Origin: an uncultured bacterium
Lineage (GTDB): Bacteria; Patescibacteriota; JAHJAL01
Assembly: GCA_938004065.1 (NCBI GenBank)
Contig: CALKWM010000013.1
Location: 2,457 to 66,456, forward strand
Direction: 5' to 3'
Length of the DNA stretch: 64,000 bases
Shown: piece by piece, positions 272 through 60,766 of the stretch
Position numbering within the stretch: the first letter of the stretch is position 1
Layout: each line of letters opens with the position of its first letter
Notes under the pieces: model-generated
Told to the model about the DNA's origin: nothing
The model's input: the letters and a program-made list of their open reading frames with translations, nothing else
Databases searched by the model: none
Program-made: the position numbers and the translations under genes

Positions 272-558
272 TGAGTAAGAAATAAGAAGTAAGAAGTAAG
301 AAGTAAGAAATAAGAAACAAGAAACAAGAAACAAGAAAGTATCAAGGATCAATATCCAATATCCAATATTCAATATTCAATATGCAATAAGCAAGAAAGT
401 ATCAATATTCAATATTCAATATGCAATAAGCAAGAAGCAAGAAACTAGAAGCAAGAAACAAGAAGCAAGAAACAAGAAAGTATCAATATTCAATATTCAA
501 TATGCAATAAGCAAGAAGCAAGAAGCAAGACACAAGACACAAGACACAAGACACAAGA
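272..558. repeat. Heptamer-periodic simple-sequence repeat array, ~290 bp, immediately 5' of pyk.
   Basis: Tandem 7-mers AAGTAAG/AAATAAG x5, CAAGAAA x3 and CAAGACA x4. There is a ~40-bp higher-order unit AGTATCAATATTCAATATTCAATATGCAATAAGCAAGAA x3, also made of 7-mers. Confidence 0.9.
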
Positions 559-731
559 GAAAGTAACATGGATTAATAGGTGGTAAGGGGTCAGTGATGA
601 GGGGAAATGATTTAAGAATTTGTATTAAATATTATATACGCATATTTATAATATCCTAAAAATTGAAGATAAAAAAATCACTCCGTGAAAACGTTTTTCA
701 GGAGTGATTTTAAGCAAAATCGATGAAAAAA

Positions 732-2615: not shown

Positions 2616-3575
2616 TTATATATTTTTGGTGGTGGGTTGGTTGGAGATTTGCAGATCTTCAATAATTTGGTCGTCTTCTCCAAGTGTTCCCAAATCTTGA
2701 TCGTTGATTTCAATAATAGTGGCGCCGGCATCAGATGTGCTAATGAAAATATTGCCGGATTCGGTAAAAGAGTGATTGGTACCGGCGGTAATGGTTCCAT
2801 CGAAGATACTTTCCGAAGAGGAATTTTTGATTCTGACCCAGATGTCTTTTTTGGATGCTTGGATGGTTAGATTCAATTGGCTATTGTCGGAATATGATTC
2901 GTCGATATTGGCCACAACTACTTTGGTGGAGGTGGTAGTTTTTCCGATTTTATTTTTGGCGGTAACTTTGATGATGTTGTAACCGTTTTTAAGCTGAATC
3001 GGAGTTTGAAAGTTGCCATTTTTGTCGGTTGTAAGTGGTTGATTGTTTACGTAGAGGACGTTATCAGGATTGGTTTGGCCGACGATATTGACTTTGTTGA
3101 CAGCAACTACCGTATAGTCGGCCGGTTCGGAGATATTTAGTTGGGGGGTTTGGATGAAATAGTTGATTTGAAAATAGGCGTATAGCCCAATGATGGCAAA
3201 TATTGTTAGCGAGGTAAAAATAGTTACAGTGCGGGGAGTAATAATAAGTTGTTGCCAAAACGATCTCTCGTTTTGGAGTTTGATATGGGAATTGTTTTGG
3301 AGAGTCTTGGTTTCGATTTCAAAACGATTTTTGATTTTTGCCAGATCAAGTTCGAGAAATTTGGCATAGTTTAGAACAAAATTCTTGGCATAATTTAAAC
3401 TGGGTAATTTCTCCCACTCATTGTTTTCAATAGCCACAATATATGACTTGCGAATGTTGGTGTATTGTTCGATATGATGAAGTTTAAGCTTGTGTTTAAG
3501 CCGTGTATTTTTGAGTATGCTACCGAGGGAGTTTTTGCCTCCGGTGAGTTTTTTGGTAGAAAAGATTATTGGCAA
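2616..3575 (-). CDS. RodZ-like cytoskeleton-associated membrane protein.
   Basis: N-terminal HTH-XRE (LGSILKNTRL...YAKNFVLNYAKFLELD), one TM segment, then an extracellular Ig-like/DUF4115-like C-terminus. Confidence 0.5.
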   Translation of the reverse strand: MPIIFSTKKLTGGKNSLGSILKNTRLKHKLKLHHIEQYTNIRKSYIVAIENNEWEKLPSLNYAKNFVLNYAKFLELDLAKIKNRFEIETKTLQNNSHIKLQNERSFWQQLIITPRTVTIFTSLTIFAIIGLYAYFQINYFIQTPQLNISEPADYTVVAVNKVNIVGQTNPDNVLYVNNQPLTTDKNGNFQTPIQLKNGYNIIKVTAKNKIGKTTTSTKVVVANIDESYSDNSQLNLTIQASKKDIWVRIKNSSSESIFDGTITAGTNHSFTESGNIFISTSDAGATIIEINDQDLGTLGEDDQIIEDLQISNQPTTKNI

Positions 3576-7871: not shown

Positions 7872-7909
7872 GTATGCGCCCAAGGCGCACCAGATGACTG
7901 GAAAAGTAA
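7872..7909 (+). promoter_or_regulatory. Conserved 38-bp double-dyad element, copy 1 (GTATGCGCCCAAGGCGCACCAGATGACTGGAAAAGTAA); on the coding (minus) strand it ends 23 nt upstream of the rnj ATG.
   Basis: Exact 38-mer shared with copies at 37494 and 53515/53556. It contains the dyads TGCGCC-CAA-GGCGCA and CCAG-ATGA-CTGG. Confidence 0.6.
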
Positions 7910-15831: not shown

Positions 15832-15869
15832 GTATGCGCCCTAGGCGCACCAGATGACTGGAAAAGTAA
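15832..15869 (+). promoter_or_regulatory. 38-bp double-dyad element, copy 2 (CCTAGG variant), ending 10 nt upstream of the mature tRNA-Thr 5' end.
   Basis: GTATGCGCCCTAGGCGCACCAGATGACTGGAAAAGTAA. A degenerate partial copy (GTATGCCCCTAGGGTGGAAAGTA) lies at about 15925. Confidence 0.55.
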
Positions 15870-20465: not shown

Positions 20466-21971
20466 ATGAAATTGTCAATTTTTTGTGAGGAATTTTCAGA
20501 TTTGAAGGCGGATGCGGTGGTGATTTTCAATGAAAAGGGACGGGTAGCTTTACGGGGAATGGATAATGAGGTAAATAAAAGTTTGGATGGTTTTTTGAGC
20601 GAAATTCTCGAATCCGGAGAGTTTTCCAGTTGCCAAGATCAATTTCATTATTTTTATAGTTTTGATAAGATTAAAAAAATTCCCCGAGTGGCAATGGCGG
20701 GATATAGTCTGGATGGAGAAAAAACATTGAATCCTTTGCGGTCGGCGGCGGCAGTGGCGGTCAAGAAATTACGCGAGGTGGGTTTGAAAAAAATTGCTTT
20801 GATTATGCCCAATGTCAGAAGTTGGGAAATGGCGGAAAGTACTCGAGCGATTGTGGAGGGGGTATTGTTGGGATTGTATCGTTTTGATAAATATTTGGAG
20901 AATAGAAAGAAAAACGAAATTTCCGAAATACTTTTGGTGGGAGAAACCAAAGATAAAAGGACGTTTGAAAAAGCGATATTGTTGGGAGAGATGGAGTCCA
21001 GTGGGGTGATGTTGTCGCGAGATGTGGGAAATGAACCGAGCAATGTTTTAACTCCTCGCGGATTTGCGGTGGTGGCGGAAAGAGTGATGAAAAATTTGAA
21101 AGTCGGTTGTCGGGTTTTGGATGAAGGGGAAATCAAGAAGCAAGGATTGGGATTGCTTTATGGCGTTGGCAAAGGTAGTGATGAACCGCCAAGGTTGGTG
21201 GTGGTAAACTATCATGCTGGGAAAAAATATCCGACAGTGGCGTTGGTGGGGAAAGGAATAACTTTTGATAGTGGCGGGACCAGTTTAAAAGTGGGTGATG
21301 CGGCCGGGCCGATGTTGTTTGATATGAAGAGAGATATGGCGGGTGCCGGTGCGGTTTTGGGAACTATGAGTGTGATTGCCAAGCTAAAACCAAAGTTAAA
21401 TGTGGTTGGTGTTTTGCCACTTGCGGAAAATATGCTGAGTGGCCGGGCGTATAAACCGGGTGATATATTGGTGAGTTATAGCGGTAAAACGGTGGAGGTT
21501 TTCAATACCGATGCGGAAGGAAGATTGGTGATGGCGGATGCGATGAGTTATGCTCAGGAAAACTATAAACCGGATTTTTTGATAGATATTGCAACTTTGA
21601 CGGGGGCGGTGTTGCGGGCGGCCGGACCAAGTTTGATCGGTTTGTTTGGTAATGATAATCGGTTTTTGGAGAGGGCTAGAAAGGCGGCGCTGATATCAGG
21701 AGAAGAGACAATGGATTTTCCTTTGTACGAAGGTTATCGTAGTCGAGTCAAGTCGCATTTTGCCGATGTAAAAAATCTAAGTTACAAAGGTTCGGGGGCG
21801 ATCAATAGTGCCTTGTTTTTGAATGAATTTGTTGAAGAGGGAGTGAAATGGGTGCATTTTGATATGGCAGCGGTGGGTACACAGGTTGGTGATGGAACTT
21901 ATCTAACCAGGGGTGCGACCGGTGCGGGAGTGAGATTGTTGACGCATTTACTGTTAGGGATGGCGAAATAA
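20466..21971 (+). CDS. pepA: Leucyl aminopeptidase (M17 family).
   Basis: NTDAEGRLVMADAMSYA signature and M17 C-terminal catalytic domain. A strong SD (AAGGAGG) precedes the ATG. Confidence 0.9.
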   Translation: MKLSIFCEEFSDLKADAVVIFNEKGRVALRGMDNEVNKSLDGFLSEILESGEFSSCQDQFHYFYSFDKIKKIPRVAMAGYSLDGEKTLNPLRSAAAVAVKKLREVGLKKIALIMPNVRSWEMAESTRAIVEGVLLGLYRFDKYLENRKKNEISEILLVGETKDKRTFEKAILLGEMESSGVMLSRDVGNEPSNVLTPRGFAVVAERVMKNLKVGCRVLDEGEIKKQGLGLLYGVGKGSDEPPRLVVVNYHAGKKYPTVALVGKGITFDSGGTSLKVGDAAGPMLFDMKRDMAGAGAVLGTMSVIAKLKPKLNVVGVLPLAENMLSGRAYKPGDILVSYSGKTVEVFNTDAEGRLVMADAMSYAQENYKPDFLIDIATLTGAVLRAAGPSLIGLFGNDNRFLERARKAALISGEETMDFPLYEGYRSRVKSHFADVKNLSYKGSGAINSALFLNEFVEEGVKWVHFDMAAVGTQVGDGTYLTRGATGAGVRLLTHLLLGMAK

Positions 21972-22074
21972 GAAGTAAGAAGTAAGAAGTAAGAGATGAA
22001 GGCCGGTTCTTATAGAGGGTCTGTGTGGAGAAAGTATTGTATAATGGAGTTATAATTATTAATAAAATTAAATA

Positions 22075-24958: not shown

Positions 24959-26785
24959 TTATTCAACGGTAACGCTTTTGGCGAGGTTGCGGGGTTTGTC
25001 GACATCGAGATTTTTCATCACTCCCAGATAGTAGGCAAGAAATTGAAAGGGAATAACTGATAGGATAGGTGTAAGCATTTCCAGTGTTTTGGGTATGAAG
25101 ATGATATCGTCGGCGATTTGGGAAAGATTTTTATTGCCTTGAGTAGTAATGGCAATTATTTCGCCACCGCGGGCTTTGATTTCTTCCATTCCGGAGATAT
25201 TTTTTTCATAGACACTGTCTTTGGGGGCAATAAAAATAGCCGGGAAATTTTTATCGATAAGGGCGATTGGACCGTGTTTCATTTCGCCGGAAGGGTATCC
25301 TTCGGCGTGGATATAGGAAATTTCTTTGATTTTGAGGGCGCCTTCAAGAGCAATAGGAAAGTTGTATTTGCGACCCATACAGAGAAAATTGTGGCATGAG
25401 AAGTATTTCTTGGCAATTTTTTTGATATTGTCTTTTTGGGTCAAGGTTTTTTGTACTAAGTTTGGGATATGTGACAATTCAGTAATAATTCTTTTACCCA
25501 TGGTTAAAGACATGTCTCTTTGTCGTCCCAATATAACAGTTAGTAGTGCGAGTACGGTCAGTTGCGAAGTAAATGCTTTGGTTGAGGCAACACCGATTTC
25601 CGGTCCGGAGTGATTGTAAACCCCGGCGTCTGTTTCGCGAGCGATAGTGGCCCCGACAACGTTGACAATTCCGAGAGTTAGAGCATTTTTAAGCTTGGCT
25701 TCCTTGATGGCGGCGAGAGTGTCGGCAGTTTCTCCGGATTGGGAGATAGCCAGGACGGCTACAGTGTGGTCGAGGTGAGTTTTTCGGTATCGAAATTCAG
25801 AAGCGTATTCGACAGCAGTGTCGATACCGGCGTATTCTTCGAACATGTATTTGCCAACCAAACCGGCATAATATGATGTACCGCAAGAAATAATAATTAT
25901 TTTTTTGATATTTTTTAAGTTGGGCAAAATGTCATTTATTCCTCCCAATTTAGCCAATCCTTCTTTGATGTCGAGACGGCCACGCATGGTGTCGAGAAGT
26001 GAATGCGGTTGTTCCATAATTTCTTTGAGCATAAAGTGTTTGTATCCCTGTTTTTCAGCAGTATCCAGATCCCAATCCACCTGACTGATATTTTTGTCGA
26101 TGAGTTGATTGTTGATGTTGATAATTTCATATCCGTTTTTATTGAGGATAAGAATTTCTCCATCATCGAGGTAAATGATATTTTTGGTGTATTTAATGAT
26201 GGCTGAAATGTCGGATGCGATAAAATACTCATTGTTGCCGATGCCCAGGATAAGTGGACTGCCTTGTTTGGCAGCGATGAGTTGATCTTGTTCGTCTTGA
26301 TTTAGTATGACCAATCCGTATGTTCCTTTGAGTTGTTTGATGGTTTTGAGGACGGAGTTTTTGAAATTATTTTTTTTGAGGTTTTCTTCAATCAAATGGG
26401 CGATTACTTCGCTATCCGTTTGCGATACAAATTGATGATTTTTTTGAAGTTTGGTGGAAAGTTTTTGATAGTTTTCGATGATGCCGTTGTGGACGATATG
26501 AATTTTACCGGTGCAATCATAATGAGGGTGTGAATTGATTGTCGATGGTTTGCCGTGAGTGGCCCATCTGGTATGAGCAAGGCCGATATTGGTTTTGATG
26601 TGATGTTTTTTTAGTTTTGATTCGAGTGCGGAAATTTTGCCAACCGCTTTGTGACAAACTGCTTTTTTGTTTTCAATTACGGTCAGTCCACAGCTGTCGT
26701 ATCCCCGGTATTCCAGATGGTGTAGTCCGGTTAAAAGGATAGGTATTGCGTTTTTTTGGCCAAGGTAGGCAATGATACCGCACAT
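24959..26785 (-). CDS. glmS: Glutamine--fructose-6-phosphate aminotransferase.
   Basis: Starts MCGIIAYLG (N-terminal nucleophile Cys) and has two SIS domains. The ORF-track start at 26851 runs through the upstream AAGTAAG repeats and is rejected. Confidence 0.9.
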   Translation of the reverse strand: MCGIIAYLGQKNAIPILLTGLHHLEYRGYDSCGLTVIENKKAVCHKAVGKISALESKLKKHHIKTNIGLAHTRWATHGKPSTINSHPHYDCTGKIHIVHNGIIENYQKLSTKLQKNHQFVSQTDSEVIAHLIEENLKKNNFKNSVLKTIKQLKGTYGLVILNQDEQDQLIAAKQGSPLILGIGNNEYFIASDISAIIKYTKNIIYLDDGEILILNKNGYEIININNQLIDKNISQVDWDLDTAEKQGYKHFMLKEIMEQPHSLLDTMRGRLDIKEGLAKLGGINDILPNLKNIKKIIIISCGTSYYAGLVGKYMFEEYAGIDTAVEYASEFRYRKTHLDHTVAVLAISQSGETADTLAAIKEAKLKNALTLGIVNVVGATIARETDAGVYNHSGPEIGVASTKAFTSQLTVLALLTVILGRQRDMSLTMGKRIITELSHIPNLVQKTLTQKDNIKKIAKKYFSCHNFLCMGRKYNFPIALEGALKIKEISYIHAEGYPSGEMKHGPIALIDKNFPAIFIAPKDSVYEKNISGMEEIKARGGEIIAITTQGNKNLSQIADDIIFIPKTLEMLTPILSVIPFQFLAYYLGVMKNLDVDKPRNLAKSVTVE

Positions 26786-26789
26786 TTGA

Positions 26790-26838
26790 TAAGAAGTAAG
26801 AAATAAGAAGTAAGAAGTAAGAAATAAGAAGTAAAAAG
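26790..26838. repeat. AAGTAAG/AAATAAG heptamer array immediately 5' of glmS.
   Basis: AAGAAGTAAGAAATAAGAAGTAAGAAGTAAGAAATAAGAAGTAAAAAG. Confidence 0.85.
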
Positions 26839-26857
26839 AAACAATATGCAAATAATC

Positions 26858-29679: not shown

Positions 29680-29897
29680 TTTTTTTGGATGGTCCTTAAT
29701 TTTTGCTTTCTAATGATATTATATAAGTATTGTGGGCCAATATCCAATATGTAAATTGGGAGCGGTATAATGGATAATGAGTAATTAATAATTTACAATT
29801 AGTAATTGGTAGAGAAAAAATTGTTTGCACCCTAGGCGATCTTGCATACGCGGGACGAGACATGCTTATAATGTATAAATTGTATTAAGTTATTGTT

Positions 29898-30989
29898 ATG
29901 GTGTTGATATTGGGAATTGAAACTAGTTGCGATGAGACGGGAATTGCCATCGTGGAAGATGGGAGTAGGATTGTGTCCGAAAAATTAAAAAGCTCGGTTG
30001 ATTTGCAGGCGGAATACGGGGGGGTGGTACCGGAATTGGCTAGTCGGGTACATGTGGAGTATGTAAATATTTTGATAAAAGAGGCATTGGATGAGGCCGG
30101 TTTAACCATGACGGAAATTGATGCGGTGGCGGTGGCCAATGGTCCGGGATTGGTGGGAGCTTTGTTAGTGGGAACAATGGTGGCCAAGACGATCGGATTG
30201 GTGGAGAAAAAAAAGTTGATAGCGGTAAATCATCTGGAAGGACATATTTTCTCATCTTTTTTATCATTAGAAAAAAAAGATGAAAAGTTACAAGTATCAA
30301 GAATCAAGGATCAAGTTCTAAGTGAAGAAAAAAACAAGAAAATGATTTTTCCGATGGTGGTTTTGATAGTTAGTGGAGGACATACGGAATTGGTGTTGAT
30401 GGAAGATTATGGAGTGTATAAAATCTTGGGTAGTACGATTGATGATGCGGCCGGCGAAGCGTTTGACAAAGCGGCGAAAATTTTGGGATTGCCATATCCG
30501 GGAGGGCCGAGCATTGCACAGAGTGCTGTGCAAGTATCAAGTATCAAGGATCAAGGATCAAGTAATGAGGAGATAAATTTACCGAGGCCGATGTTGAATT
30601 CGAAAGATTATAATTTTTCTTTTTCGGGGTTGAAAACGGCGCTGTTATACAAAATTACTAATGATAAATTACAAATTACTAATGAAAAGATAAGAAATAT
30701 GTTGGCGTGGGAATTTCAGGAGGCGGTGTGCGATGTATTGGCCAAAAAAACCAAGCGGGCGATGGAAGATTTGGGAGTGAAAAGATTGGCGGTGGTGGGC
30801 GGGGTGGCGGCCAATCAAAGATTGCGGGAGAAATTGCATGAGACAATTGATGATGAGATTGCGATTCCGGAGTTTAAATATTGTACTGACAATGGGGTAA
30901 AAATTGCCACAGCAGGGTATTATAAGTATAGAGTTGGTAATTTTATCGATTGGCAGGATTTGGAGGTAAAGAGTAATTGGAGTTTGTAA
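29898..30989 (+). CDS. tsaD: tRNA N6-adenosine threonylcarbamoyltransferase TsaD (Kae1/YgjD), carrying two in-frame heptamer-repeat insertions.
   Basis: MVLILGIETSCDETGIAIV, HLEGHIFS, SGGHTEL and GVAANQRLRE motifs. The inserted segments encode EKLQVSRIKDQVLSEE and VQVSSIKDQGSS and are written in CAAGTAT/CAAGGAT heptamers. Confidence 0.9.
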   Translation: MVLILGIETSCDETGIAIVEDGSRIVSEKLKSSVDLQAEYGGVVPELASRVHVEYVNILIKEALDEAGLTMTEIDAVAVANGPGLVGALLVGTMVAKTIGLVEKKKLIAVNHLEGHIFSSFLSLEKKDEKLQVSRIKDQVLSEEKNKKMIFPMVVLIVSGGHTELVLMEDYGVYKILGSTIDDAAGEAFDKAAKILGLPYPGGPSIAQSAVQVSSIKDQGSSNEEINLPRPMLNSKDYNFSFSGLKTALLYKITNDKLQITNEKIRNMLAWEFQEAVCDVLAKKTKRAMEDLGVKRLAVVGGVAANQRLREKLHETIDDEIAIPEFKYCTDNGVKIATAGYYKYRVGNFIDWQDLEVKSNWSL

Positions 30990-31209
30990 AAATTACTAAT
31001 TGCGAATTACTAATGACAAATTTTAAATGGATAAATGGCCCAATAGTTAAATAGTTGGATAGTGCTAGAGTACTTTTTATAACTTATTAATTGTCAAATA
31101 TTAGATAGATCGAAAAGAAATTGATTAGAAATTTGAAATTAAAAATTATGACTTGGAGCTTTTTTTGAGAGTATAAATATTTTTAGCTAAATGTAAAAAA
31201 GGTTGAAAA

Positions 31210-34612: not shown

Positions 34613-35533
34613 TTGAATAAAATTGTCAAAAATTTGTTAATGGGGTTGTTGATATTCGTACTGGTTGTGGCAGGCGGTTTGCTGGGGTGGTATTATTCCA
34701 AATCATGGCGGGGGCAAAAATCAGCTCTATATCTCGAGAAATCGGAGCAATATATCGAACAAAAAAGTAGTAATGCTTTGTGGGAATTGGAGAAGGCGTA
34801 TTTGATGGGGATGAATTATGGTGATTATCAAATAAAAAAGGCCTTGGCTCTACTAAAGTTAAATGATGAACGAGCAATCGCACAAGCCAAATTGACGATC
34901 GACAGAGGGTGGGTTAGTGATGATTTGTATTTTTGGTATGGCAAAAGGTTATTTGAAATTGGAGATTATGTAAATGCGGAAAAGCAGTTTTTGAAGATTT
35001 CGGATGATTTGGACGAAAGTAATATCGATGAGTATTATGAGTATATGGCATTTTTGGCCGGTAGCCATGGGAATTTTTCTCAAGCGGTGGAGTTTTTGGA
35101 TAAGTCGTTGGTAAGTGAAAATGAGTTGGCAAATAATATGAAGATATTTTTGGATGCGGTAAATGATAATTGGACAGAGATTGATAAGCTGGAGCTTGCG
35201 GATGAGATGAAGAAAAATTTGGATGAACTGGAAAAAATGAATGGGGATTTGTATGTTTTAAAGTTGGCGGACGTGGCTAATGATATGGGTTTGTCGAGCT
35301 GGTGCCGGGCTTTGATCGATGGTCAACAGTGGAAGGGGGTAAACAATAAATATATCTATCTGGTTTATGCTCGATCGTATTTGGTAGAAAATGATTGTGG
35401 AAATGCATGGGAATATCTAAAAAACGTGGAGGAAGACGATAGTATCGATGAAGATTTGCATATCTTGTTGGCGCAAACGTATAAATGTTTGGGAAATGTG
35501 GAGTGGATGGAATGGGAAGAGGGTAAGCAATAA
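34613..35533 (+). CDS. Hypothetical N-terminally membrane-anchored protein (helical/TPR-like); the gene ends inside a CAATAAG array.
   Basis: N-terminal TM LLMGLLIFVLVVAGGLLGWYY. The stop codon lies inside the heptamer array (..EGKQ*). Confidence 0.45.
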   Translation: MNKIVKNLLMGLLIFVLVVAGGLLGWYYSKSWRGQKSALYLEKSEQYIEQKSSNALWELEKAYLMGMNYGDYQIKKALALLKLNDERAIAQAKLTIDRGWVSDDLYFWYGKRLFEIGDYVNAEKQFLKISDDLDESNIDEYYEYMAFLAGSHGNFSQAVEFLDKSLVSENELANNMKIFLDAVNDNWTEIDKLELADEMKKNLDELEKMNGDLYVLKLADVANDMGLSSWCRALIDGQQWKGVNNKYIYLVYARSYLVENDCGNAWEYLKNVEEDDSIDEDLHILLAQTYKCLGNVEWMEWEEGKQ

Positions 35534-35583
35534 GCAATAAGCAATAAGCAATAAGCAATAAGCAATAAGCAATAAGCAATAAG
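35523..35583. repeat. (CAATAAG)n heptamer array, ~8.5 units.
   Basis: Perfect tandem CAATAAG units in the convergent intergenic space between the 34613 gene and the PilB-like gene. Confidence 0.95.
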
Positions 35584-35687
35584 GGTTATGGAGGTGAGGG
35601 GAGAAATGGATAATAAATATATGTAAGTAAATCAAGAAAAAACGCCATAGGTGGCGTTTTGGTTTGAAAATTATTTGATATATCCTC

Positions 35688-37457
35688 TTACTCTTTGGTG
35701 GCGGACCAAACTTCGGGCATGGTGGTGTGTCCTTGGATAACTTTCATCAGGCCATCTTGTTCCATGGTAGTCATACCATCTTCGAGAGCGGCTTTTTGTA
35801 GCGAGGAAAGGGAGAGTGATCTTAAAACCACTTCTTCAATGCGAGGAGTAACGACAAATGTTTCGATGATAGCGATTCGGCCGGAAAATCCGGTATTGTT
35901 GCATTTGATGCATCCTTTGCCTCTTTTTAATATTTTTGGGACTTCATTTATACCTCGACGTTTGGTGTCGGGGATTTTTTGAAAAATATTGACCATTTCC
36001 TGGTGTATGAGCGAGTCTATCTCGTATTCTTCCTGGCAGTTTTGACATATTCTACGAACAAGTCTTTGAGCGATGATCAGATTGATTGAGCTTATGATGA
36101 GGTATGGTTTGACACCCATTTCAATCAAACGGGGAATGGCACCGGCGGCGTTGTTGGTGTGGATAGTGGATAGTACCAAATGACCGGTCAGTGATGCTTG
36201 AGTGGCGATTTCGGCGGTTTCCGGATCACGGATTTCACCGACTAGAACGATATCCGGATCTTGACGAAGGATAGAGCGTAAGCCGGAGGCGAATCCATAG
36301 TTTTTTTCGTGATGAACTTGGCTTTGGGAGATGCCACTAATTCGATACTCGACCGGATCTTCGAGGGTGATGATTTTATCTTCGGGATTGTTTAATTCTT
36401 GTAAAATTGCGTAGAGAGTGGTGGTTTTACCGGAACCGGTAGGACCGGTGTTTAGTATCAGACCATTGGGTTTGTGGATAGCGTTGTTGATAACCAGATC
36501 GATATCTTCGGGAAAACCAAGTTCTTTTAGACTGACGAATTTTTCTTTTTGTTCCAACATACGCATTACGGTGGATTCACCGTAGATGGTGGGCAGGATA
36601 GAAACACGAATGTCAAATTTGGAGTTGGCGGCGGTAATTGAGAAACGTCCGTCTTGCGGGATATCAGTTATATCCAGTTTTAATTTGGATAGATATTTCA
36701 AGCGAGACATCAGAGGTTTGAAGGCCACTTTGTCCAGATAGGCAATATCTTGCAGTACACCATCCATACGATAGCGCAAACGAATTTGGGTTTCGGTGGG
36801 TTCGATATGGATGTCCGATGCGCCGATTTTGACCGCACCGGTCATAACAACATCAACCAGTTCGGTGGTTGAGACGGTTTTGATTCGTTCTTTGAGTTCA
36901 GATAAACTTGATATTTGTTCTTCAAATTTGGATTCATCTTCCTCGGTAACCATGATTTTTTCGGTTTCTCGTTTATCGGGGGAAACCAATTCATAGAGCT
37001 TGAGGGCAAAATCAATACTCGATTCGGAAGTGATACTGACCAAAAACTCAAATCCGGAGGCGTCTTGAAGTTTTTTTAGAACCTCCATGGTGGCTTGGTT
37101 GTATTCGGTGCTGGCAATACGAATTTTTTTTCCGGCTTTGAGATAGGGAACAACACGGTATTTTTGAGCGATGTCTTTGGGAATTATTTCCATCACTTCC
37201 GGACTGATGGGGTAGTTGAGTAGATTGACATACGGCAAATTGGCTTGTTTGGCTTTTTGCTGGACAAATTTTTCCTCTTCTTCTTGTTGGAAAGATTTGA
37301 TGACACTCGATACTTTGGTGGCTTTACCTCTGCCCAAGTCTTTGGCTTTTTGCTGAGTGGACATGACTTGTTTTGATGCTTCGATTTCTTCGCGCATTTT
37401 TTGCTGAAGCCGTTGAGGAGTATCACCTTGGGTTATTTGTTGTTTGTCGTCAGGCAT
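35688..37457 (-). CDS. Type IV pilus assembly / type II secretion ATPase (PilB/GspE family).
   Basis: N-terminal GspE_N-like domain. Walker A LNTGPTGSGKTTTL, Asp and His boxes, and a tetracysteine motif CQNCQ...CIKC. The start was set at MPDDKQQ (37457) because the track start 37505 runs into the repeat array. Confidence 0.85.
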   Translation of the reverse strand: MPDDKQQITQGDTPQRLQQKMREEIEASKQVMSTQQKAKDLGRGKATKVSSVIKSFQQEEEEKFVQQKAKQANLPYVNLLNYPISPEVMEIIPKDIAQKYRVVPYLKAGKKIRIASTEYNQATMEVLKKLQDASGFEFLVSITSESSIDFALKLYELVSPDKRETEKIMVTEEDESKFEEQISSLSELKERIKTVSTTELVDVVMTGAVKIGASDIHIEPTETQIRLRYRMDGVLQDIAYLDKVAFKPLMSRLKYLSKLKLDITDIPQDGRFSITAANSKFDIRVSILPTIYGESTVMRMLEQKEKFVSLKELGFPEDIDLVINNAIHKPNGLILNTGPTGSGKTTTLYAILQELNNPEDKIITLEDPVEYRISGISQSQVHHEKNYGFASGLRSILRQDPDIVLVGEIRDPETAEIATQASLTGHLVLSTIHTNNAAGAIPRLIEMGVKPYLIISSINLIIAQRLVRRICQNCQEEYEIDSLIHQEMVNIFQKIPDTKRRGINEVPKILKRGKGCIKCNNTGFSGRIAIIETFVVTPRIEEVVLRSLSLSSLQKAALEDGMTTMEQDGLMKVIQGHTTMPEVWSATKE

Positions 37458-37493
37458 GGTGAGAAGTAAGAAATAAGAAGTAAGAAGTAAGAA

Positions 37494-37531
37494 GTATGCG
37501 CCCAAGGCGCACCAGATGACTGGAAAAGTAA
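37494..37531 (+). promoter_or_regulatory. 38-bp double-dyad element, copy 3, flanked on both sides by AAGTAAG repeats, 36 nt upstream of the PilB-like ATG.
   Basis: Exact 38-mer GTATGCGCCCAAGGCGCACCAGATGACTGGAAAAGTAA. Confidence 0.6.
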
Positions 37532-44476: not shown

Positions 44477-45877
44477 TTATTTTTTATTGGCGTAATATAA
44501 TATTGTGTTGGAATAACCTCTATTAGCGTCACCAAACTCGGCTAGTTCCAAATCGGACCAGGAGATTTTGGTACGATTGCGATTGCCCGGATCGTTGAGG
44601 ATTACTCCTTCTTGATCATACCCGACGGCAACGACAAAATGGCTGGGACCACCGGATGACAAATTGGGACCGCCACCAAGGACTACCGGTATTCCTTTGT
44701 CCAAATAAGTGGTAATGGTCTTTTGTTGTTGACTGAAATCAAAAACGAATTGATTTTCTTCAACGATAATATCCGGGTATTCGCTGTGGATGTTTTGGGC
44801 AGTAACTGTGATACCGGTTAAACTGCATACAGATGTTGGGTCAACGTCTTTGCCCATAAATTTTAGTACCATAGCAAGAGAGGTGCAGTAACAGCCGGCT
44901 TTTTGGATATCGGCACTGTAATCACCTTGATTAAAATACCACTCACGCGGTTTGTCCAGTGATTTGGCACCGGAGGGTGTGTCGTATGTTGGTGTTACTG
45001 CTTCGGCTTGGGTGGAAATATCGGTTGGGTAGTGTTTGTTGCCACTGCCCATGCCACCCATAGCTAGAAAAAGGACAACAATTAGAAAAATTATGATGAC
45101 GATAATGATGATGATCAAAATAACTACTACTACCGGCCAACCAACCGCGGCAGCGCCTCCGGCGGCAGCGGCAGTTCCACCAGCGGCAGCGGCAGCTCCG
45201 CCCGCTGCAGCGGCACCTCCACCAGCGGCGGCCACGGTTCCACCGGCAGCAGCTGTACCGGCACCGGCTGCTCCCGCTCCCGCGGCTCCGGCACCGGCTC
45301 CGGTTGCACCAGCAGTGCCAGCACCAGTTGCTCCCGTGCCTGCTCCGGCACCGGCTGACGGACCACCCGGTGGCATTTTGCCGGTAGGTGTTTTTGGGGA
45401 TTGCGTGCCCGGCTGACCGGGTTTTTGACCGGAACCGGGTTTGTCCGGTTGCTTGTTTTTGTCGGCATCTTCGCGATTAATCTTGCGGTTTTTGTCCGGT
45501 TGGGATTTGTCCTGGTCGGTGTCTTGTTTGTCTTTATCTTTGTCCTGTTTTTTGTCTTTATCCTTGTCTTGATCTTTTTCTTTGTCCTTGTCTTTATCCT
45601 GATCCTGATCTTTATCTTTATCTTTATCCTTTTCTTTTTCTTTGTCTTGATCCTGATCTTTTTCTTTGTCAGGTTCCTGGTCGGGTTTTTTTTCCGGAGA
45701 TGGTTGTTCCGGACTACTGGTACTTTGTGGTGAAGTGTCGGGTTGGCGGTCAAGATTGATTGATTGCGGTTCTGATCCACCGGCTGATGACGATTGTCCG
45801 CCACCTGGTGTGGAGGTACCGGATATATTTATCTCAATGTCTTTTTTTTCGATATCTTCGCGTTTGAATTTGGCCAT
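44477..45877 (-). CDS. Membrane-anchored papain-like cysteine peptidase (Peptidase_C39-like domain) with a disordered KD-repeat and Gly/Ala/Thr-rich N-terminal region.
   Basis: The N-terminus contains (KDKD/QDKD) repeats, then a GAGAGTGATGAG stretch, then a single TM VVVILIIIIIVIIIFLIVVLFLA. The C-terminal domain carries a catalytic-Cys motif AGCYCTSLAMVL and a His motif PSHFVVAVGYD. Confidence 0.6.
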   Translation of the reverse strand: MAKFKREDIEKKDIEINISGTSTPGGGQSSSAGGSEPQSINLDRQPDTSPQSTSSPEQPSPEKKPDQEPDKEKDQDQDKEKEKDKDKDKDQDQDKDKDKEKDQDKDKDKKQDKDKDKQDTDQDKSQPDKNRKINREDADKNKQPDKPGSGQKPGQPGTQSPKTPTGKMPPGGPSAGAGAGTGATGAGTAGATGAGAGAAGAGAAGAGTAAAGGTVAAAGGGAAAAGGAAAAAGGTAAAAGGAAAVGWPVVVVILIIIIIVIIIFLIVVLFLAMGGMGSGNKHYPTDISTQAEAVTPTYDTPSGAKSLDKPREWYFNQGDYSADIQKAGCYCTSLAMVLKFMGKDVDPTSVCSLTGITVTAQNIHSEYPDIIVEENQFVFDFSQQQKTITTYLDKGIPVVLGGGPNLSSGGPSHFVVAVGYDQEGVILNDPGNRNRTKISWSDLELAEFGDANRGYSNTILYYANKK

Positions 45878-48315: not shown

Positions 48316-49863
48316 TTAGTGATCTTTTTTTAGTGTATATAAGTAGTTTTCCATATCAGTGAAGTAGAGGGTAAATGATGATGGGTCGAAAGCTAGAGAA
48401 TCAATACTGTTTGCACCTTGTTGCTTTTGATCGAAATTGGTGGAGAATATTGTATCATTTTGAATGCTATCTGATTTGCGTGATGTATCAAAATAATAAA
48501 ATTGGTCGGTACTGTTGGGATAATCGCCTGGTGTAATTGTAGGGAGATATGTTGGGATAGCTAAGATAAATTCTGTATTAGATATCCAAGTTAGTTTTTT
48601 GATAAATGATTTGATCAAAAGTGGTCTGAAATATATATCATTGTTGTCATTTTTTCGAATAAACTCAATTGAAGGCAATCCTTTGTTATCTATTATTTCG
48701 GCGAGTAGTGTTTCATTATCAGGAGACCAGCTAATATCTGTAATGGTTCTGATTGCTGGAATTTCTTCAATCAAGTTGTTTTCAAAATGAAAAATAAATG
48801 CAGTATGATCTTGCGAAATAATCGCAAGTTTGGTGTTGTCGGTTGTAATTTTTATTTCTGGATTAAGAATTTTTGATGGTAGCTTATAAATATTTTGCCA
48901 TTGACTGCCATCGGGATTGGCTATCGTTAAACTATTGTGGTTTTCTCCTTCTGTGTAAACAGGAGCCCATCCTCTGCCACCACTAGGCATATCTGGATCG
49001 GGAATTGATTTTTCATCGATTGTTTGGTTTTGGAATATATAATATATTTTTTCAGAGTCTTTTGACCAGGCAATTTTGTCTGAAGGAATTGTTGAGTTAA
49101 TTATTTTTTGGGTAACTATGTCGAGGTAATATTTTTTTTCTAAAGTTTCATCGTTTTCGGTGCCGTTAAAGATAACTTTATTAAAATTTGGCGACCATAA
49201 AATATCTTTGATATTTTTGAATTCATTTGTTTCAAAAATTATTGTTTCTTGGTTGTTTTCAATTTTTTTGAATTGAAATTTATTTGAAAATGAACTATTT
49301 GCTTCGTCGAAGATGGTAATCTGTTCGATATAATGGGGTGTATTATTTATAGAATTATTTTGTAGCCCAATAACAATATTTTGGGTTTTTTCTTTGATTG
49401 AAGGAATTAGGTTGGCATCTATATTGGTAGTTTGCCAGAAATAAACAATGAAATCCTTTTGAAAATCAAGGTAGTTTTCTTTTTTAATTACTAAACTATA
49501 GTTGCCTGGTGGTAAAGATAAAAAGGTGCTTTGAGTTTGACTATAAAATTCAATTTTTGAATCTAAAAATGGACAATTAGAATAACCTTCTTGGTGAACA
49601 ATATCTGCGGTATTGCATATATAAGCTTTGGTTGATGACTGGTTGGAATGAATTAATAATTTTCCTTTATTTATTAAAGGCCAAGTAATTAATATTCCAA
49701 TAACTAGAATAATAATTCCTGCAGAAATATAAAGATAATTTTTCTTGAAAAATTCGATAATATTGGATTTTTTTTCTTTAGTATTAGAAGAGATATTGTC
49801 TGGTTGTAGGTTTAGTTTTTTCATTATTTTTATAAATGGATTAGCATTTGTAATAGAGGACAA
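48316..49863 (-). CDS. N-terminally membrane-anchored PD40/TolB-like beta-propeller protein.
   Basis: TM segment YISAGIIILVIGILITWPL, then repeated WSP(N/D)..K..F motifs (ILWSPNFNKVIF, ISWSPDNETLLA, KIAWSKDSEKIYY). Confidence 0.5.
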   Translation of the reverse strand: MSSITNANPFIKIMKKLNLQPDNISSNTKEKKSNIIEFFKKNYLYISAGIIILVIGILITWPLINKGKLLIHSNQSSTKAYICNTADIVHQEGYSNCPFLDSKIEFYSQTQSTFLSLPPGNYSLVIKKENYLDFQKDFIVYFWQTTNIDANLIPSIKEKTQNIVIGLQNNSINNTPHYIEQITIFDEANSSFSNKFQFKKIENNQETIIFETNEFKNIKDILWSPNFNKVIFNGTENDETLEKKYYLDIVTQKIINSTIPSDKIAWSKDSEKIYYIFQNQTIDEKSIPDPDMPSGGRGWAPVYTEGENHNSLTIANPDGSQWQNIYKLPSKILNPEIKITTDNTKLAIISQDHTAFIFHFENNLIEEIPAIRTITDISWSPDNETLLAEIIDNKGLPSIEFIRKNDNNDIYFRPLLIKSFIKKLTWISNTEFILAIPTYLPTITPGDYPNSTDQFYYFDTSRKSDSIQNDTIFSTNFDQKQQGANSIDSLAFDPSSFTLYFTDMENYLYTLKKDH

Positions 49864-52800
49864 AATCCGACCATCCTTCTCCTTCCTCCCAGTTTGCTTT
49901 TTTGGTTATGCTATTTATGGTAGGATCAAAAAATTTATCGATGGGTGTAGGTTCATTCGGTCCGTTGTAACCTAGTTGTTGATAACAACCCGAGTTATTA
50001 ATTATTAGATTTTTTACCCCGTCTATTTCTTGGTAACTTTTGATCGTGACATAATGACCGGAAAAACCGCCAATACCAATATTATAATAATAGTATGTAC
50101 CAACTACTACTGGTATGCCTTGTTTGGCAAGGTTAATTATTTCCTGTTTGGTGGCACCTCGATGAATACAGCTTTGTTTGTCTTGTGGGATGTGTTTTTT
50201 CATTTGTTTTTCAAGATAATCCATGTTGGTAGATTGCGATAGTGGTCTGACGCATTTTGATGAATCATTACAAGTGTAGTCATCATAAAATGATCTTTCT
50301 CCGAAACTAGTGGCAAAACCTTGTGATTGCAATAACATAAGCAAGGCAGTAGGTCCGCAACCATCATCAGTGGTTTGACAGTAGTGAGGCATTTCTCCTG
50401 GTGTAACTACAGTAGGTGTAGTGCTGGGTGTGCTACATTGTTCGGAAGTAGTTTGTAAATAGGGGTATGGGTCTTGGAAATCGGGTAAATCTATACTACA
50501 TCCATCTGGATTTGCATTTAAAGGTCGCTCAAAGTGCATCATACAACATGGACCAATATCGTCTACTGTTGCTATTTGTTGTCCGGCTCTTATTTTTGTG
50601 CCTTGAGTGATGAAAGGTTCAGTGTTTACTTCACCATAACCGTTAAATGAACCATCGGCGTCGTTTTTAACCATAATGTAGTCTTTGCCACAATAGAAAT
50701 TTTCTTTTACATATTCTACTGTTCCGGATTCAATAGCTATTACTGGCCAACTAGCACCGGTTTGACCGCAATTGTTAGGTCCAGGACCAGCTTCTCCAAC
50801 AATAAGATCAAAACCTGCGTGTGCTCTAGAGACAGGACAATCGCCTTGAGGCCGAGATGCTTTGAAGTGTCTTGGTCCATTTGGAGCTCCTTTGTTTCCG
50901 TACTCGAGAGTAGCTTCTTTGCCATCGGCGCCAATAATTGGCCAGCATCTGCCACCGGGAGGAACATCGGAAATTGTTTGCGTTTGTTCTTGACATTTTT
51001 TAATACAGTCATCAATTTCTTGTTGGGTGTATCCCGGAAAAGATCCACCATTATTACCAGTTGAGCCGGTTGTGCCACCTTGGCCACCGCAGATTTCGGA
51101 GTCGGAACCAATAATATTGAATTGTTTTTTGGCGGTAATAACTCGATTGTATGATTCTTCAATCCTATTTTTTAGTGCTTCATTTTCTCTGGCTTTGTTA
51201 GCGATGTTAGTTATTACTTCGTTTATAGTTCCGGATGTTGCAGAAACAAGCATAATGATATCATTTCCGGCATTGATAGCTTTTTCGACTCTATCTGTGG
51301 TGGAATCGTTGGTTGATAGTGATGCGCCAACAGCGTTCAAGTCGTCGGTGATTATCAGTCCGTTAAAACCATTTCGGGCTTTGTCAACAATTTCTTTGGT
51401 ATAGGCAGCGTTTTCGGAAGAAATTTTGGTATAGGTAATACTATTCATCATGATAGCTACTTTATTTCCATATTTTTGTTTTAAATCATCGAATGGTTTT
51501 ATATATTGATAAGGATCTTCACTAGATGTGCCTTTTTCATAATCGGTGTGAGCACTTGCCGGATAGCCAGGAAAATGTTTAAGTGTGGGAATAACACTAG
51601 CGAGAATCAAGCCATCAATGTAATTTGATGCTTCAGTAGTAATATCACCATCAAAAGTACGACCGTCAGCACTAATTGGACTGTCGCTTAGGTTTGGGTC
51701 TACTACTGGTGCAAGATTCATATTGATACCGAAAGATTTCATATCCTTACCGCATGATGTCATAGATGTTTTTGGATCAGACATATTGGCGGCTGATGGC
51801 AAGTTGGAGCAATTGTTTGCGGTGCTGGTATATTTAAGTCTGTTGACTACTCCACCTTCGATGTCGCTGGCGATAATTGGTTTTATTTTCAATGTGTTGG
51901 TAATTGTTTTTATTTTAGCAAGACTATTATCTTCACTGCCTCCCATCATTATGATACTACCAATTTTCAGTTTTTCTAATTCATCAGTAGTAAAATTGGC
52001 TTCGTTGACCATAAGTATTTGGCCAATTTTTTCTTCCAAGCTTAGTTCTTTACATTTCTGGCTGGATCCTTCGATGTAAAATAGTTTCCCTGGATCTTGT
52101 GAGTGGACGATATTGGTCATATATTTGGTAAAATCAGTAATTTCATATTTAGCCATTTCACCACTTGAGCCGTTATTTTTTACACCAGTATATACAGTAC
52201 CGTGATCTTCGTAGGGATCGTTGACAATAAAGGAAGTAATTTGACCAGAGGAATCTTTGGTATAACCGATAATTAGAACTATGTGGCCGTAATTGCCATC
52301 GGTATTTGATGTGCGCATGAATCCGGTAAATGCGACCATGGGAGTACCTTGGTCAATCAGGCCGGTTATTTTAGGAATGCTATTGGTGTCATATTTGAAT
52401 TCCGTTACAGTTGATCCTGTTTCGGTTGTAGCAAAACTTTGAATAGTACCTGATCCATTTCTTGTAGCGTCTTTACCGTTTAATGTTTTGTTTTGTTCAA
52501 TAGTACTCCAGACCGGTTCGATGGTGGTGTAGTAGGTGCCGGGGTCAATATCTGTACTATTGGCATAATTGACAGCCATAACTGTTGAAACGAATCCGCA
52601 ACCGGCACTTTCAATGGTGTCGACACTGTCTAGTTTGACATTGGGATATTGTTTTTGATTATAATGTTTGATTCCGGAAATATAAGTTTTGTCGTCATTA
52701 GATGTGGGACCGGAGGAGATGTCTTGGCATTGCATGTTTTCAAAAATTGCTTTTGCATAATTAACTCTTTTGGTAAATGGTGTTAGGTCGTCTGAGCATT

Positions 52801-53485
52801 CAAAAAGATCGTGAAAAGTACCAACCAAATCTTCAATTTTTGTATATTCTGGAAAAAAACTATACAAGCTTTTATATCCTTCTTCATAATATTTTTCCCC
52901 ATAAATGCTTTCTCTTGGGATAAGATAGACATTGCATAAAGCAGGTCCGGTGAATTCTTTCCAAAAAAATTCAAGTTGAGCTTGAAGGCTGTCGATAGGT
53001 TGATTGGTTGATTCGCAATAAGAAGATAAGGCATCGTGTCTGCTTCCATACCATTGGGCCAATCCGTATGCTCCGCTATCTGGGTTGAGAGCTGTAGGAG
53101 AAAATTGGGATTCCTGTTGGAAATTACCTGCTATTGCTGCAGCTTGAGTTTTGTTGAGTCCTTTGGATGTAAGAAAACTTATAACAGTGTTGATGTTTTT
53201 TCTTTGGGATTCGTCAATTGAATTACCTGTATAGGTGCAGGGGCCGGTAGATGAACCTCTAGGTCCGTATGTTTCTAGCAAACAATCCTCAACGCATTTT
53301 CGATCGGTGGGCGAAAGTAAACTATCCGGAGTCAAGCCGGTCATGCCTAACATGGCCATCATGAGAGGTAGTAGAAACATTAATATACCGCAACAGCAAA
53401 GGGTGCAGCAAATATAGAGTATATAGCGCAAGGGGTCGTCCTGGAGATTTGTTTCGTCAGGGATTTGTGGGGTTGGCTCGGACAT
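49841..53485 (-). CDS. Giant membrane-anchored multidomain peptidoglycan hydrolase, in the position of a T4SS VirB1/PrgK/CwlT-type lysin.
   Basis: The start was set at MSEPTPQ (53485) rather than the track start 53533. From N- to C-terminus:
- TM segment RYILYICCTLCCCGILMFLLPLMMAML.
- Phage-tail-lysozyme-like motif AAIAGNFQQESQFSPTA...GAYGLAQW.
- C39-like domain 1 (AGCGFVSTVM...YGHIVLIIGY...NDPYEDH).
- GH3/NagZ-like domain (LEEKIGQILMV...ASDIEGG...KHFPGY...AHTD, GLIITDDLNAVGA).
- M23/LytM-like domain (AHAGFDLIV...QQIATVDDIG...MMHFE).
- C39-like domain 2 (GCGPTALLMLLQSQG...GHYVTIKSY). Confidence 0.7.
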   Translation of the reverse strand: MSEPTPQIPDETNLQDDPLRYILYICCTLCCCGILMFLLPLMMAMLGMTGLTPDSLLSPTDRKCVEDCLLETYGPRGSSTGPCTYTGNSIDESQRKNINTVISFLTSKGLNKTQAAAIAGNFQQESQFSPTALNPDSGAYGLAQWYGSRHDALSSYCESTNQPIDSLQAQLEFFWKEFTGPALCNVYLIPRESIYGEKYYEEGYKSLYSFFPEYTKIEDLVGTFHDLFECSDDLTPFTKRVNYAKAIFENMQCQDISSGPTSNDDKTYISGIKHYNQKQYPNVKLDSVDTIESAGCGFVSTVMAVNYANSTDIDPGTYYTTIEPVWSTIEQNKTLNGKDATRNGSGTIQSFATTETGSTVTEFKYDTNSIPKITGLIDQGTPMVAFTGFMRTSNTDGNYGHIVLIIGYTKDSSGQITSFIVNDPYEDHGTVYTGVKNNGSSGEMAKYEITDFTKYMTNIVHSQDPGKLFYIEGSSQKCKELSLEEKIGQILMVNEANFTTDELEKLKIGSIIMMGGSEDNSLAKIKTITNTLKIKPIIASDIEGGVVNRLKYTSTANNCSNLPSAANMSDPKTSMTSCGKDMKSFGINMNLAPVVDPNLSDSPISADGRTFDGDITTEASNYIDGLILASVIPTLKHFPGYPASAHTDYEKGTSSEDPYQYIKPFDDLKQKYGNKVAIMMNSITYTKISSENAAYTKEIVDKARNGFNGLIITDDLNAVGASLSTNDSTTDRVEKAINAGNDIIMLVSATSGTINEVITNIANKARENEALKNRIEESYNRVITAKKQFNIIGSDSEICGGQGGTTGSTGNNGGSFPGYTQQEIDDCIKKCQEQTQTISDVPPGGRCWPIIGADGKEATLEYGNKGAPNGPRHFKASRPQGDCPVSRAHAGFDLIVGEAGPGPNNCGQTGASWPVIAIESGTVEYVKENFYCGKDYIMVKNDADGSFNGYGEVNTEPFITQGTKIRAGQQIATVDDIGPCCMMHFERPLNANPDGCSIDLPDFQDPYPYLQTTSEQCSTPSTTPTVVTPGEMPHYCQTTDDGCGPTALLMLLQSQGFATSFGERSFYDDYTCNDSSKCVRPLSQSTNMDYLEKQMKKHIPQDKQSCIHRGATKQEIINLAKQGIPVVVGTYYYYNIGIGGFSGHYVTIKSYQEIDGVKNLIINNSGCYQQLGYNGPNEPTPIDKFFDPTINSITKKANWEEGEGWSDFVLYYKC

Positions 53486-53514
53486 GGTAAGAAATAAGAA
53501 GTAAGAAATAAGAA

Positions 53515-53593
53515 GTATGCGCCCAAGGCGCACCAGATGACTGGAAAAGTAATAAGTATGCGCCCAAGGCGCACCAGATGACTGGAAAAGTAA
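53515..53593 (+). promoter_or_regulatory. Two tandem copies of the 38-bp double-dyad element (53515-53552 and 53556-53593), 29 nt upstream of the lysin ATG, preceded by AAATAAG/AAGTAAG repeats.
   Basis: GTATGCGCCCAAGGCGCACCAGATGACTGGAAAAGTAA x2, separated by TAA. Confidence 0.6.
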
Positions 53594-60756: not shown

Positions 60757-60766
60757 TTTTTTCTCC

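Follow-up and report, generated by a model that had tools for sequence, protein, structure and literature searches.

The gene tsaD lies at 29898-30989 on the plus strand of a stretch of 64,000 nucleotides (nt) from contig CALKWM010000013.1 of an uncultured member of the Patescibacteriota; this whole 64-kb stretch is called the window below. The open reading frame (ORF) encodes a TsaD protein of 363 amino acid residues (aa), and runs of seven-nucleotide units (heptamers) are found within it at three sites, designated B, C and D. The features of the locus are as follows:

29774..29807, minus strand: inverted copy of the site D repeat, upstream of tsaD (81% over 32 nt with 30991-31022; 84% over 31 nt with 30653-30683)
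29898..30989, plus strand: tsaD coding sequence (363 aa), in which the tracts lie (ORF; Pfam PF00814 on all close homologues, precomputed)
30264..30344, plus strand: site B insertion, SLEKKDEKLQVSRIKDQVLSEEKNKKM (aa 123-149), located after the HLEGH motif and before the strand that leads to SGGH
30266..30360, plus strand: hot spot of strain divergence that comprises tract B and the A-rich sequence following it (window against the near-identical strain L081)
30291..30316, plus strand: tract B, CAAGTAT CAAGAAT CAAGGAT CAAGT, encoding QVSRIKDQV (Tandem Repeats Finder, period 7, 3.7 copies)
30528..30548, plus strand: site C insertion proper, aa 211-217, VQVSSIK, 7 aa or 21 nt or three units (7-residue gap in HMMER alignments to 3zet_B and 4ydu_A)
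30531..30564, plus strand: tract C, CAAGTAT twice, CAAGGAT twice and CAAGTA, encoding QVSSIKDQGSS (Tandem Repeats Finder, period 7, 4.9 copies, 92% matches)
30652..30683, plus strand: site D repeat, AAATTAC TAATGAT AAATTAC AAATTAC TAATGA, encoding KITNDKLQITN, with no added length (Tandem Repeats Finder, period 7, 4.6 copies)
30990..31022, plus strand: 14-nt/heptamer repeat directly 3' of the tsaD stop codon (Tandem Repeats Finder, period 14, 2.4 copies; 79% direct repeat of the site D copy)

Judged by its sequence, the ORF is an unambiguous TsaD in which all catalytic motifs are kept. Similarity to the solved bacterial structures 3zet, 4ydu, 6n9a and 8iey extended over residues 4-362, with E-values of 2e-79 to 4e-67, and H112/H116 (HxxxH), S159-G-G-H162 and D331-N332 (CTDN) were invariant in 89 aligned sequences, that of the window included. 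The identical protein has records in NCBI, ENA and Logan and was seen on four contigs, which makes an assembly artefact an unlikely source of the tracts.

Heptamer tracts of tsaD and the intergenic repeat family

An earlier reading of this DNA by a model that saw only its letters and ORFs (the sequence-only reading) had placed heptamer tracts inside tsaD, between conserved TsaD blocks. Tandem Repeats Finder confirmed them as real period-7 arrays; the sequences and peptides given were right, and the start coordinates were 2-4 nt too low. Tracts B and C are translated in-frame in the 363-aa ORF, as had also been proposed, and appear there as ...KLQVSRIKDQVL... and ...AVQVSSIKDQGSSN..., the encoded peptides in tsaD being QVSRIKDQ, VQVSSIKDQGSS and KITNDKLQITNEK. 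The two tracts form a direct repeat of 82% over 38 nt. With 3.7-4.9 copies, 84-92% matches and at most two identical adjacent units, the tsaD tracts of the window are short and imperfect, and the repeat at site D is also readable as 14-mer units.

The occurrence of the repeats in the window was compared with that in shuffled sequences. The single heptamer CAAGNAT was not enriched (44 found, 38.5 expected), but its tandem form, ATCAAGNATCAAG, gave five matches, all of them in tsaD, where 0.01 were expected. The 15-mer AGTATCAAGGATCAA occurs in six exact copies, one of which lies in tract C of tsaD at 30540-30554, while the other five are located in the large intergenic arrays (starts 338, 60895, 62031, 62648 and 62740) and correspond to the junction between their CAAGAAN and CAATATN blocks. 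When two or fewer mismatches were allowed, 19 matches to AGTATCAAGGATCAA were found against 0.14 expected. This 15-mer, common to tsaD and the arrays, bears out the earlier view that the tracts belong to the repeat family of the intergenic arrays. Moreover, an autocorrelation scan of the window returned 43 segments of period 7 (1759 nt), compared with 0-6 segments for each of the periods 5, 6 and 8-11. An origin of the tracts by chance, or as a compositional artefact of an AT-rich gene, is in keeping with the background frequency of the single CAAGNAT; given the shuffles for the tandem form and the 15-mer family, together with the specificity for period 7, its probability is practically nil. 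The proviso of the sequence-only reading, that the matches might fall within chance expectation, therefore holds in the window for the single heptamer alone.

The motif ATTACTAAT(G/T)A occurs in tsaD as exact copies at 30654 and 30675 and with one mismatch at 30668, and downstream of the gene as an exact copy at 31006 and with one mismatch at 30992, so that the three copies in the gene and two downstream reported earlier are reached if the one-mismatch copies are included (2+1 and 1+1). Exact matches to ATTACTAAT[GT]A in the window are confined to the tsaD locus. The gene is also flanked on both sides by a 32-nt inverted repeat with arms at 29776-29807 and 30991-31022, which are 81% complementary.

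Insertions in TsaD and their recurrence in relatives

The lengths of the segments that hold the tracts were compared with those of other TsaDs. At site B, where the TsaD of E. coli and Salmonella has 5 residues, the protein of the window is ~22 aa longer, and ~9 of the ~22 extra residues are coded by heptamers. The HxxxH-to-SGGH span is 42 aa in the window, whereas its median was 23 among 120 homologues and 20 (interquartile range, IQR, 20-20) in 144 array-free distant TsaDs; array-bearing TsaDs have 29-40. At site C, the alignment with E. coli TsaD showed the 7-residue gap and one further single-residue gap nearby, and the PGGP-to-SGLK span is 38 aa in the window (residues counted by hand), against a median of 29 (IQR 29-30) in array-free and 34-64 in array-bearing TsaDs. 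Because the spans exceed the tight range of the array-free TsaDs, sites B and C are true insertions relative to repeat-free orthologues, as the sequence-only reading had claimed. At site D (aa 252-263) the span is 25 aa, compared with a family median of 24; no residues are added there, and the insertion that had been implied for the ATTACTAAT repeat is not found.

AlphaFold2, given an alignment of 89 sequences, returned a model with a mean predicted local distance difference test score (pLDDT) of 92.9 and a predicted template modelling score (pTM) of 0.91. Away from sites B and C, pLDDT was at least 95, and at these two sites the model confidence is low or moderate. For the ten-residue blocks of 121-150, pLDDT was 66, 48 and 69, with coil predicted at 125-142, and site B is read from the model as a probable disordered linker. 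At site C, helix 202-217 is predicted to be extended by two turns by VQVSSIK and to be followed by coil (pLDDT ~80). Site D was modelled with pLDDT of at least 90; it runs from the last part of helix 243-255 through the loop 256-262 into the beginning of helix 263-292. The surface loops in which the repeats had been presumed to lie are thus matched in the model by site B and, as a helix extension followed by coil, in part by site C; site D, between high-confidence helix ends, is no insertion.

The nearest named relatives of the host are metagenome-assembled genomes labelled 'Patescibacteria group bacterium'. The order femAB, tsaD, valS is kept in relatives 58-69% identical, and their tsaD genes bear heptamer tracts at the same sites with other units. 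The tsaD of L082 carries (AAATATC)4 at site B, (CAAATCT)4 at site C and (AAAAAGT)n at site D; that of L089 carries CAAATCY units at site B and CAAGAAG TAAGAAA TAAGAAA CAAGAAA CAAGTAT at site C. In L084, CAATGAC-type units were found at site B and ~18 units of ACAGAAT/ATAGAAT at site C, which extend over 130 nt, encode EYRIQNT repeats and, in both unit variants, also form an intergenic array 7 kb away. A recent block copy from this intergenic array into tsaD was rejected as a candidate, given that the longest common substring of 47 nt was reached by shuffled units in a fraction of 0.11. Unit number and unit sequence differ completely between species, and neither the residues nor the lengths of sites B and C are conserved, even among relatives 60-70% identical; P0004 and P0005 are without the site B insertion. 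Because the units of relatives differ at the same sites, the tracts follow each genome's own repeats, and the sites are permissive positions at which the content turns over.

L086 comes from a repeat-poor genome, in which 21 kb held a single low-complexity segment, and the long B and C loops of its TsaD show no periodicity. The sequence-only reading had named the same residues in repeat-free relatives as evidence against insertion; in this nearly repeat-free relative, the loops are of similar length and consist of unrelated residues, and the insertions therefore predate the species of the window. In L088 and its relatives, a ~60-nt element, composed of AATTTCC heptamers around a CCCTCGCGGGG hairpin, is present in-frame at three tsaD sites; in the tsaD of L088 the element, whose hairpin is CCCTCGCGGGGATCAGC, encodes NFQFFPSRGSAGAEISNFQ (positions 174-350, 640-700 and 951-1082). 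The valS gene of L088 holds an internal (CAATTTC)n tract (3128-3157).

Three alleles, those of the window, L081 and P0122, fall into one TsaD cluster at 90% identity. Over 1.7 kb, the window and L081 are nearly the same: tsaD outside the hot spot (~1000 nt) has 5 synonymous differences and the next 300 nt none. The hot spot at site B holds ~20 substitutions (counted by hand) and two in-frame indels of 3 and 15 nt by our own realignment, a net gain of 12 nt in L081 that mafft rendered as one 12-nt gap. The third allele, P0122, also differs mainly at the site B patch. Mutagenesis of the type caused by diversity-generating retroelements was considered for site B and dropped, as the substitutions are not limited to adenines and no template repeat was evident. 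A second divergence patch between the window and L081 lies at 29822-29870, in the promoter region 5' of tsaD, with indels of 37 and 22 nt and further substitutions.

A survey was subsequently made of 152 distinct distant tsaD loci, mostly 40-47% identical, among the matches listed from genome and metagenome contig collections, to which matches the survey counts below apply. The ranking by tblastn used a query bearing the B and C insertions, which favours TsaDs inserted there and does not favour tracts at site D. Period-7 tracts were present in tsaD at 21 of the 152 loci. The tract density was ~10-fold higher in tsaD (36 tracts in 150 kb) than in the flanks (28 in 1200 kb; binomial p = 2e-18), and among the 20 loci whose flanks hold one or more arrays it was 3.6 times that of the flanks. 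By site, there were 8 tracts at B, 8 at C, 15 at D, 3 at an N-terminal hairpin and 2 elsewhere. Tracts with periods of 5, 10 or 11 were not found in tsaD in the survey, and period 8 was found four times. The units were unrelated between loci (AGCACGA, ATTTCGA, AAAATAC, AACTCCG, CAGATAT, CACACAT, GTGCATC, CAAGCTA, GTCAGGT and others). Nine tract-positive loci came from named organisms, of which seven belong to the Nitrospirota/Thermodesulfovibrionia and one is another Patescibacterium.

A frame check by tblastn found no frameshifted tsaD at 169 loci. Four two-frame cases in this check were rejected as frameshifts, the second matches being weak (24-37% identity to the first ~125 residues) and located at separate positions 5' of an intact tsaD; we take these to be TsaB-like paralogues. 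In-frame heptamer tracts were also observed in genes adjoining tsaD, namely in ValS of L125 (5146-5192), L149 (7312-7348) and L088 and, twice, in LeuRS of L018 (658-689 and 1258-1302), and further tract-bearing flank genes encode Pol I, a LarC-like and a lipoate-ligase-like protein; these identities were assigned by eye from motifs. Because these flank genes carry tracts, the phenomenon is not unique to TsaD.

Origin of the tracts

The tsaD tracts are probably short, degenerate heptanucleotide simple sequence repeats (SSRs) of the intergenic family, situated within lineage-specific insertions at permissive TsaD sites and kept in frame by purifying selection, with the gene, on the best reading of its sequence, remaining an ordinary functional tsaD. 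A highly active, lineage-specific heptanucleotide process would fill the intergenic DNA by replication slippage, perhaps with exchange between arrays, and the same process would seed or expand tracts within genes where added residues are tolerated. Within genes, the survivors would be frame-preserving changes (three units, which equal 21 nt or 7 aa, or other multiples of 3 nt) in units without an in-frame stop, and with this filter on slippage the tracts would build up only where extra residues are harmless. A unit read in all three phases would yield quasi-repeats of 7 aa (QVSSIKD), and point mutations would later disrupt the perfect repeat, leaving it less prone to slip again. The insert peptides probably have no catalytic role, and we infer that slippage generates the tracts, that the inserts are neutral and that purifying selection acts as the filter. 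This account is favoured by the gain of 7 aa, or three units, at site C over E. coli TsaD, by the greater length of sites B and C in every array-bearing TsaD, by the in-frame nature of the site B indels between near-identical alleles and by the absence of frameshifts at the 169 loci. Also in its favour are the 15-mer common to tsaD and the intergenic arrays, the low or moderate model confidence at sites B and C, the different units at these sites in relatives and the internal tracts in ValS and LeuRS of other heptamer-rich genomes.

Several observations weigh against it. In the ~53 kb of proxy coding sequence of the window, tsaD is the sole gene with internal tracts. The ~10-fold excess per kb in tsaD over the flanks in the survey is likewise awkward, as an unbiased neutral process would not obviously single out one gene; sampling bias together with unusually permissive loops could account for it. 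Furthermore, site B has diverged ~50 times as much as the remainder of tsaD between near-identical strains. With synonymous sites outside it nearly unchanged, relaxed constraint alone is inadequate to explain this patch; its likely cause is slippage or mutability of the low-complexity sequence there, or else recombination over a short tract. Finally, no change in unit number was found among the three alleles, in which slippage itself was not seen, and tracts C and D are identical in all three and in every contig read that carries the allele of the window. The sequence-only reading had called the repeat family active or tolerated inside coding sequence; activity is not supported by these alleles.

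The tracts were compared with known repeat systems. Heptanucleotide long SSRs (LSSRs) of prokaryotes form a class described by Mrazek, Guo & Shah (2007), as summarised in PMC4679880, and include the GGGNATC repeats of Xanthomonas and Nostoc (PMC4692102) and the TAACTGA repeats of Beggiatoaceae (PMC4679880); the class is generally attributed to slippage (PMC4679880). The tsaD tracts share its defining traits, being head-to-tail units beyond chance with a related, mostly intergenic array population. As in the window, LSSRs are tandem 7-nt units that are spread genome-wide, mostly between genes, are under-represented in coding sequence and lie a few bases 5' of starts (antisense strand) or over stops (sense strand). 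In contrast, the host of the window is low in GC and stands near the Patescibacteria/Candidate Phyla Radiation (CPR), its A-rich NAAKANN units have no G-quadruplex potential, and heptamer tracts are translated in-frame within a universally conserved enzyme, where many lineages have them at the same sites; the cited papers mention intragenic copies only in passing. A literature search returned no report of heptamer repeats in CPR or Nitrospirae coding sequences. Heptameric short tandemly repeated repetitive (STRR) sequences of cyanobacteria were reportedly described by Mazel and co-workers in 1990, and an STRR array is said to lie inside RNase P RNA. The STRR units are CCCCAGT, TTGGTCA and CAACAGT, and the family is confined to heterocystous cyanobacteria. 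By this account, STRR sequences resemble the repeats of the window in being mainly intergenic and occasionally tolerated in an essential gene at a variable structural element; they differ in host, in units (CAAGNAT/NAAKANN in the window) and in that their intragenic case is an RNA gene and not a protein loop.

It is unlikely that the inserts are selected functional peptides, that is, adaptive extensions of CPR-clade TsaDs (for example a partner or tRNA contact) for which the periodicity would reveal only their origin. The B and C insertions are indeed kept in most clade members, including the repeat-poor L086, and site C is an ordered helix extension in the model, but residues and lengths are not conserved among relatives 60-70% identical, P0004 and P0005 have no B insert, and site B, predicted to be disordered, diverges faster between strains than any other part of tsaD. 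A cis-acting nucleic-acid element, for which the tracts would be bound or read as DNA or RNA and kept in tsaD, is quite unlikely. The placement of the arrays against minus-strand starts and over plus-strand stops, nearly all in one orientation, would suit such an element, a similar layout is known for the Xanthomonas/Nostoc heptamers (PMC4692102), and tsaD sites keep heptamer tracts despite full turnover of the unit sequence. Against this stand the lack of conservation of the unit sequence between relatives and the absence of tracts from several clade members; an Rfam scan of the window returned one tRNA only and no family matching the heptamer arrays, and a promoter/terminator scan around tsaD, itself uninformative, tied no such signal to the tracts.

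Insertion of a mobile element resembling Rickettsia palindromic elements (RPEs) or miniature inverted-repeat transposable elements, whose remnants after in-frame integration the tracts would be, is very unlikely. RPEs are found in-frame in protein-coding genes (Ogata et al. 2000, reviewed in PMC10969869) and, like the repeats of the window, are genome-specific, lying between genes and in unrelated housekeeping genes at fold-compatible positions; the ~60-nt hairpin element, in-frame at three tsaD sites in L088, is much like them (PMC10969869) and a closer analogue than the tracts of the window. The dispersed 30-nt GC hairpin of the window is always flanked by heptamers, and the tracts of the window occur both in-frame within a conserved gene and between genes. 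However, RPEs are discrete palindromes of ~150 bp that encode a conserved peptide, whereas the tsaD tracts of the window are 26-34 nt of plain tandem heptamers without a hairpin element, terminal inverted repeats or a target duplication, and in L084 the 47-nt block shared by tsaD and the intergenic array is not above that of shuffled units. Highly improbable is a phase-variation (contingency) switch, in which gain or loss of a single unit would flip tsaD on or off and produce subpopulations low in N6-threonylcarbamoyladenosine (t6A). The sequence-only reading had pointed out that a single-unit change would frameshift the gene, which is arithmetically right for a unit length not divisible by three, and tsaD of L084, with its ~18 nearly perfect units, should slip often. 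A precedent exists in neuO of E. coli K1, whose coding sequence holds (AAGACTC)n that encodes 7-aa repeats and is in frame only if the unit number is divisible by 3 (PMC13001214). The accessory gene neuO carries 3-53 perfect units near its 5' end and is out of frame in most genomes, whereas the tsaD tracts are short, imperfect and mid-gene, and were always in frame, in the three alleles as at the 169 loci. Counted against the switch, too, is that tsaD is essential or near-essential in most bacteria.

If genome-specific heptamer slippage is the origin of the tracts, the locus would show how new peptide segments can be written into a universally conserved enzyme without destroying it, and would explain at the nucleotide level how some of the lineage-specific insertions arose by which CPR and Nitrospirota housekeeping proteins exceed their textbook orthologues in length. 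In practice, alignments, phylogenies and gene calls can be led astray by such tracts, as when an ORF is called with a spurious N-terminal extension that crosses an array. A broader proposal, that heptamer expansion has, without being recognised, quite generally given rise to lineage-specific insertions in universally conserved proteins of Patescibacteria, Nitrospirota/Thermodesulfovibrionia and Elusimicrobia, with TsaD as a preferred host, is tentative and rather doubtful as it stands. Were TsaD a cross-phylum hot spot, its sites would be exceptionally permissive, or t6A would be linked to the tolerance of frameshift-prone sequence; speculatively, tsaD may be unusually tolerant in that ribosomal frameshifting increases when t6A is lost, and alleles slipped out of frame could thereby be rescued in part. 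The recurrence at the same TsaD sites across phyla and the hot spot at site B are judged the most interesting aspects of the locus.

Arrays and other repeats across the window

The units of the heptamer arrays follow the pattern NAAKANN (TAAGAAG, CAAGAAA, CAATATC, TAAGCAA and others). Examples of the long intergenic arrays are:

272..565, plus strand: long intergenic heptamer array with AGTATCAAGGATCAA at 338-352
60782-61057: further long intergenic array
61937-62093: further long intergenic array
62500-62762: further long intergenic array

The arrays directly abut the ATG of minus-strand genes and span the stop codons of plus-strand genes. In three minus-strand genes (24959..~26787, 35688..~37457 and 49841..~53485), the ATG lies 0-6 nt after (CTTCTTA)n in the sense orientation (arrays at 26788-26841, 37458-37501 and 53486-53519), and no Shine-Dalgarno sequence was visible. 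These arrays may act as 5' untranslated region or translation-initiation elements. The product of 24959..~26787 begins with MCGIIAY, which we take to be GlmS-like. The arrays had also appeared to lie within the 5' ends of the ORFs 24959..26851, 35688..37505 and 49841..53533, which was rejected, as these are over-long TTG/GTG ORF calls with the true ATG just downstream of the arrays. On the plus strand, ORF 20466..21971 takes its stop codon from the first TAA of (TAAGAAG)n (array 21969-21994), valS ends with ...LISNK* inside (TAATAAG)2 (33904-33924), and ORF 34613..35533 ends inside (TAAGCAA)8 (35520-35591). Units that contain TAA provide stops in all three frames.

The GC skew of the window is strongly positive throughout (+0.06 to +0.48 in 2-kb windows), regardless of gene strand, although the minus strand carries most of the genes. 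With the exception of the one at 61551-61612, the heptamer arrays have a single orientation. This reverse-orientation array lies in a region of ~2.4 kb (60400-62770) that consists mainly of heptamer arrays with higher-order periods of 46, 53, 60, 74, 81 and 95 nt and in which the ORFs are small and doubtful.

A conserved 30-nt element with two small hairpins, GTATGCGCCCAAGGCGCACCAGATGACTGG, occurs six times, always on the plus strand, at 7872-7901, 15832-15861, 37494-37523, 53515-53544, 53556-53585 and 61057-61086. All copies of this GC hairpin are situated between heptamer arrays (..TAAGAAG, the element, AAAAGTAA..), mostly just 5' of minus-strand genes. A diverged copy in the reverse orientation, TGCACCCTAGGCGA, was noted by eye in the strain-variable promoter patch of tsaD. 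Coding repeats of a class distinct from the heptamers are present in ORF 44477..45877 (minus strand) at 45147-45670, where GC-rich repeats of period 21/42 were found together with CTTTAT-type repeats of period 6/24/42.

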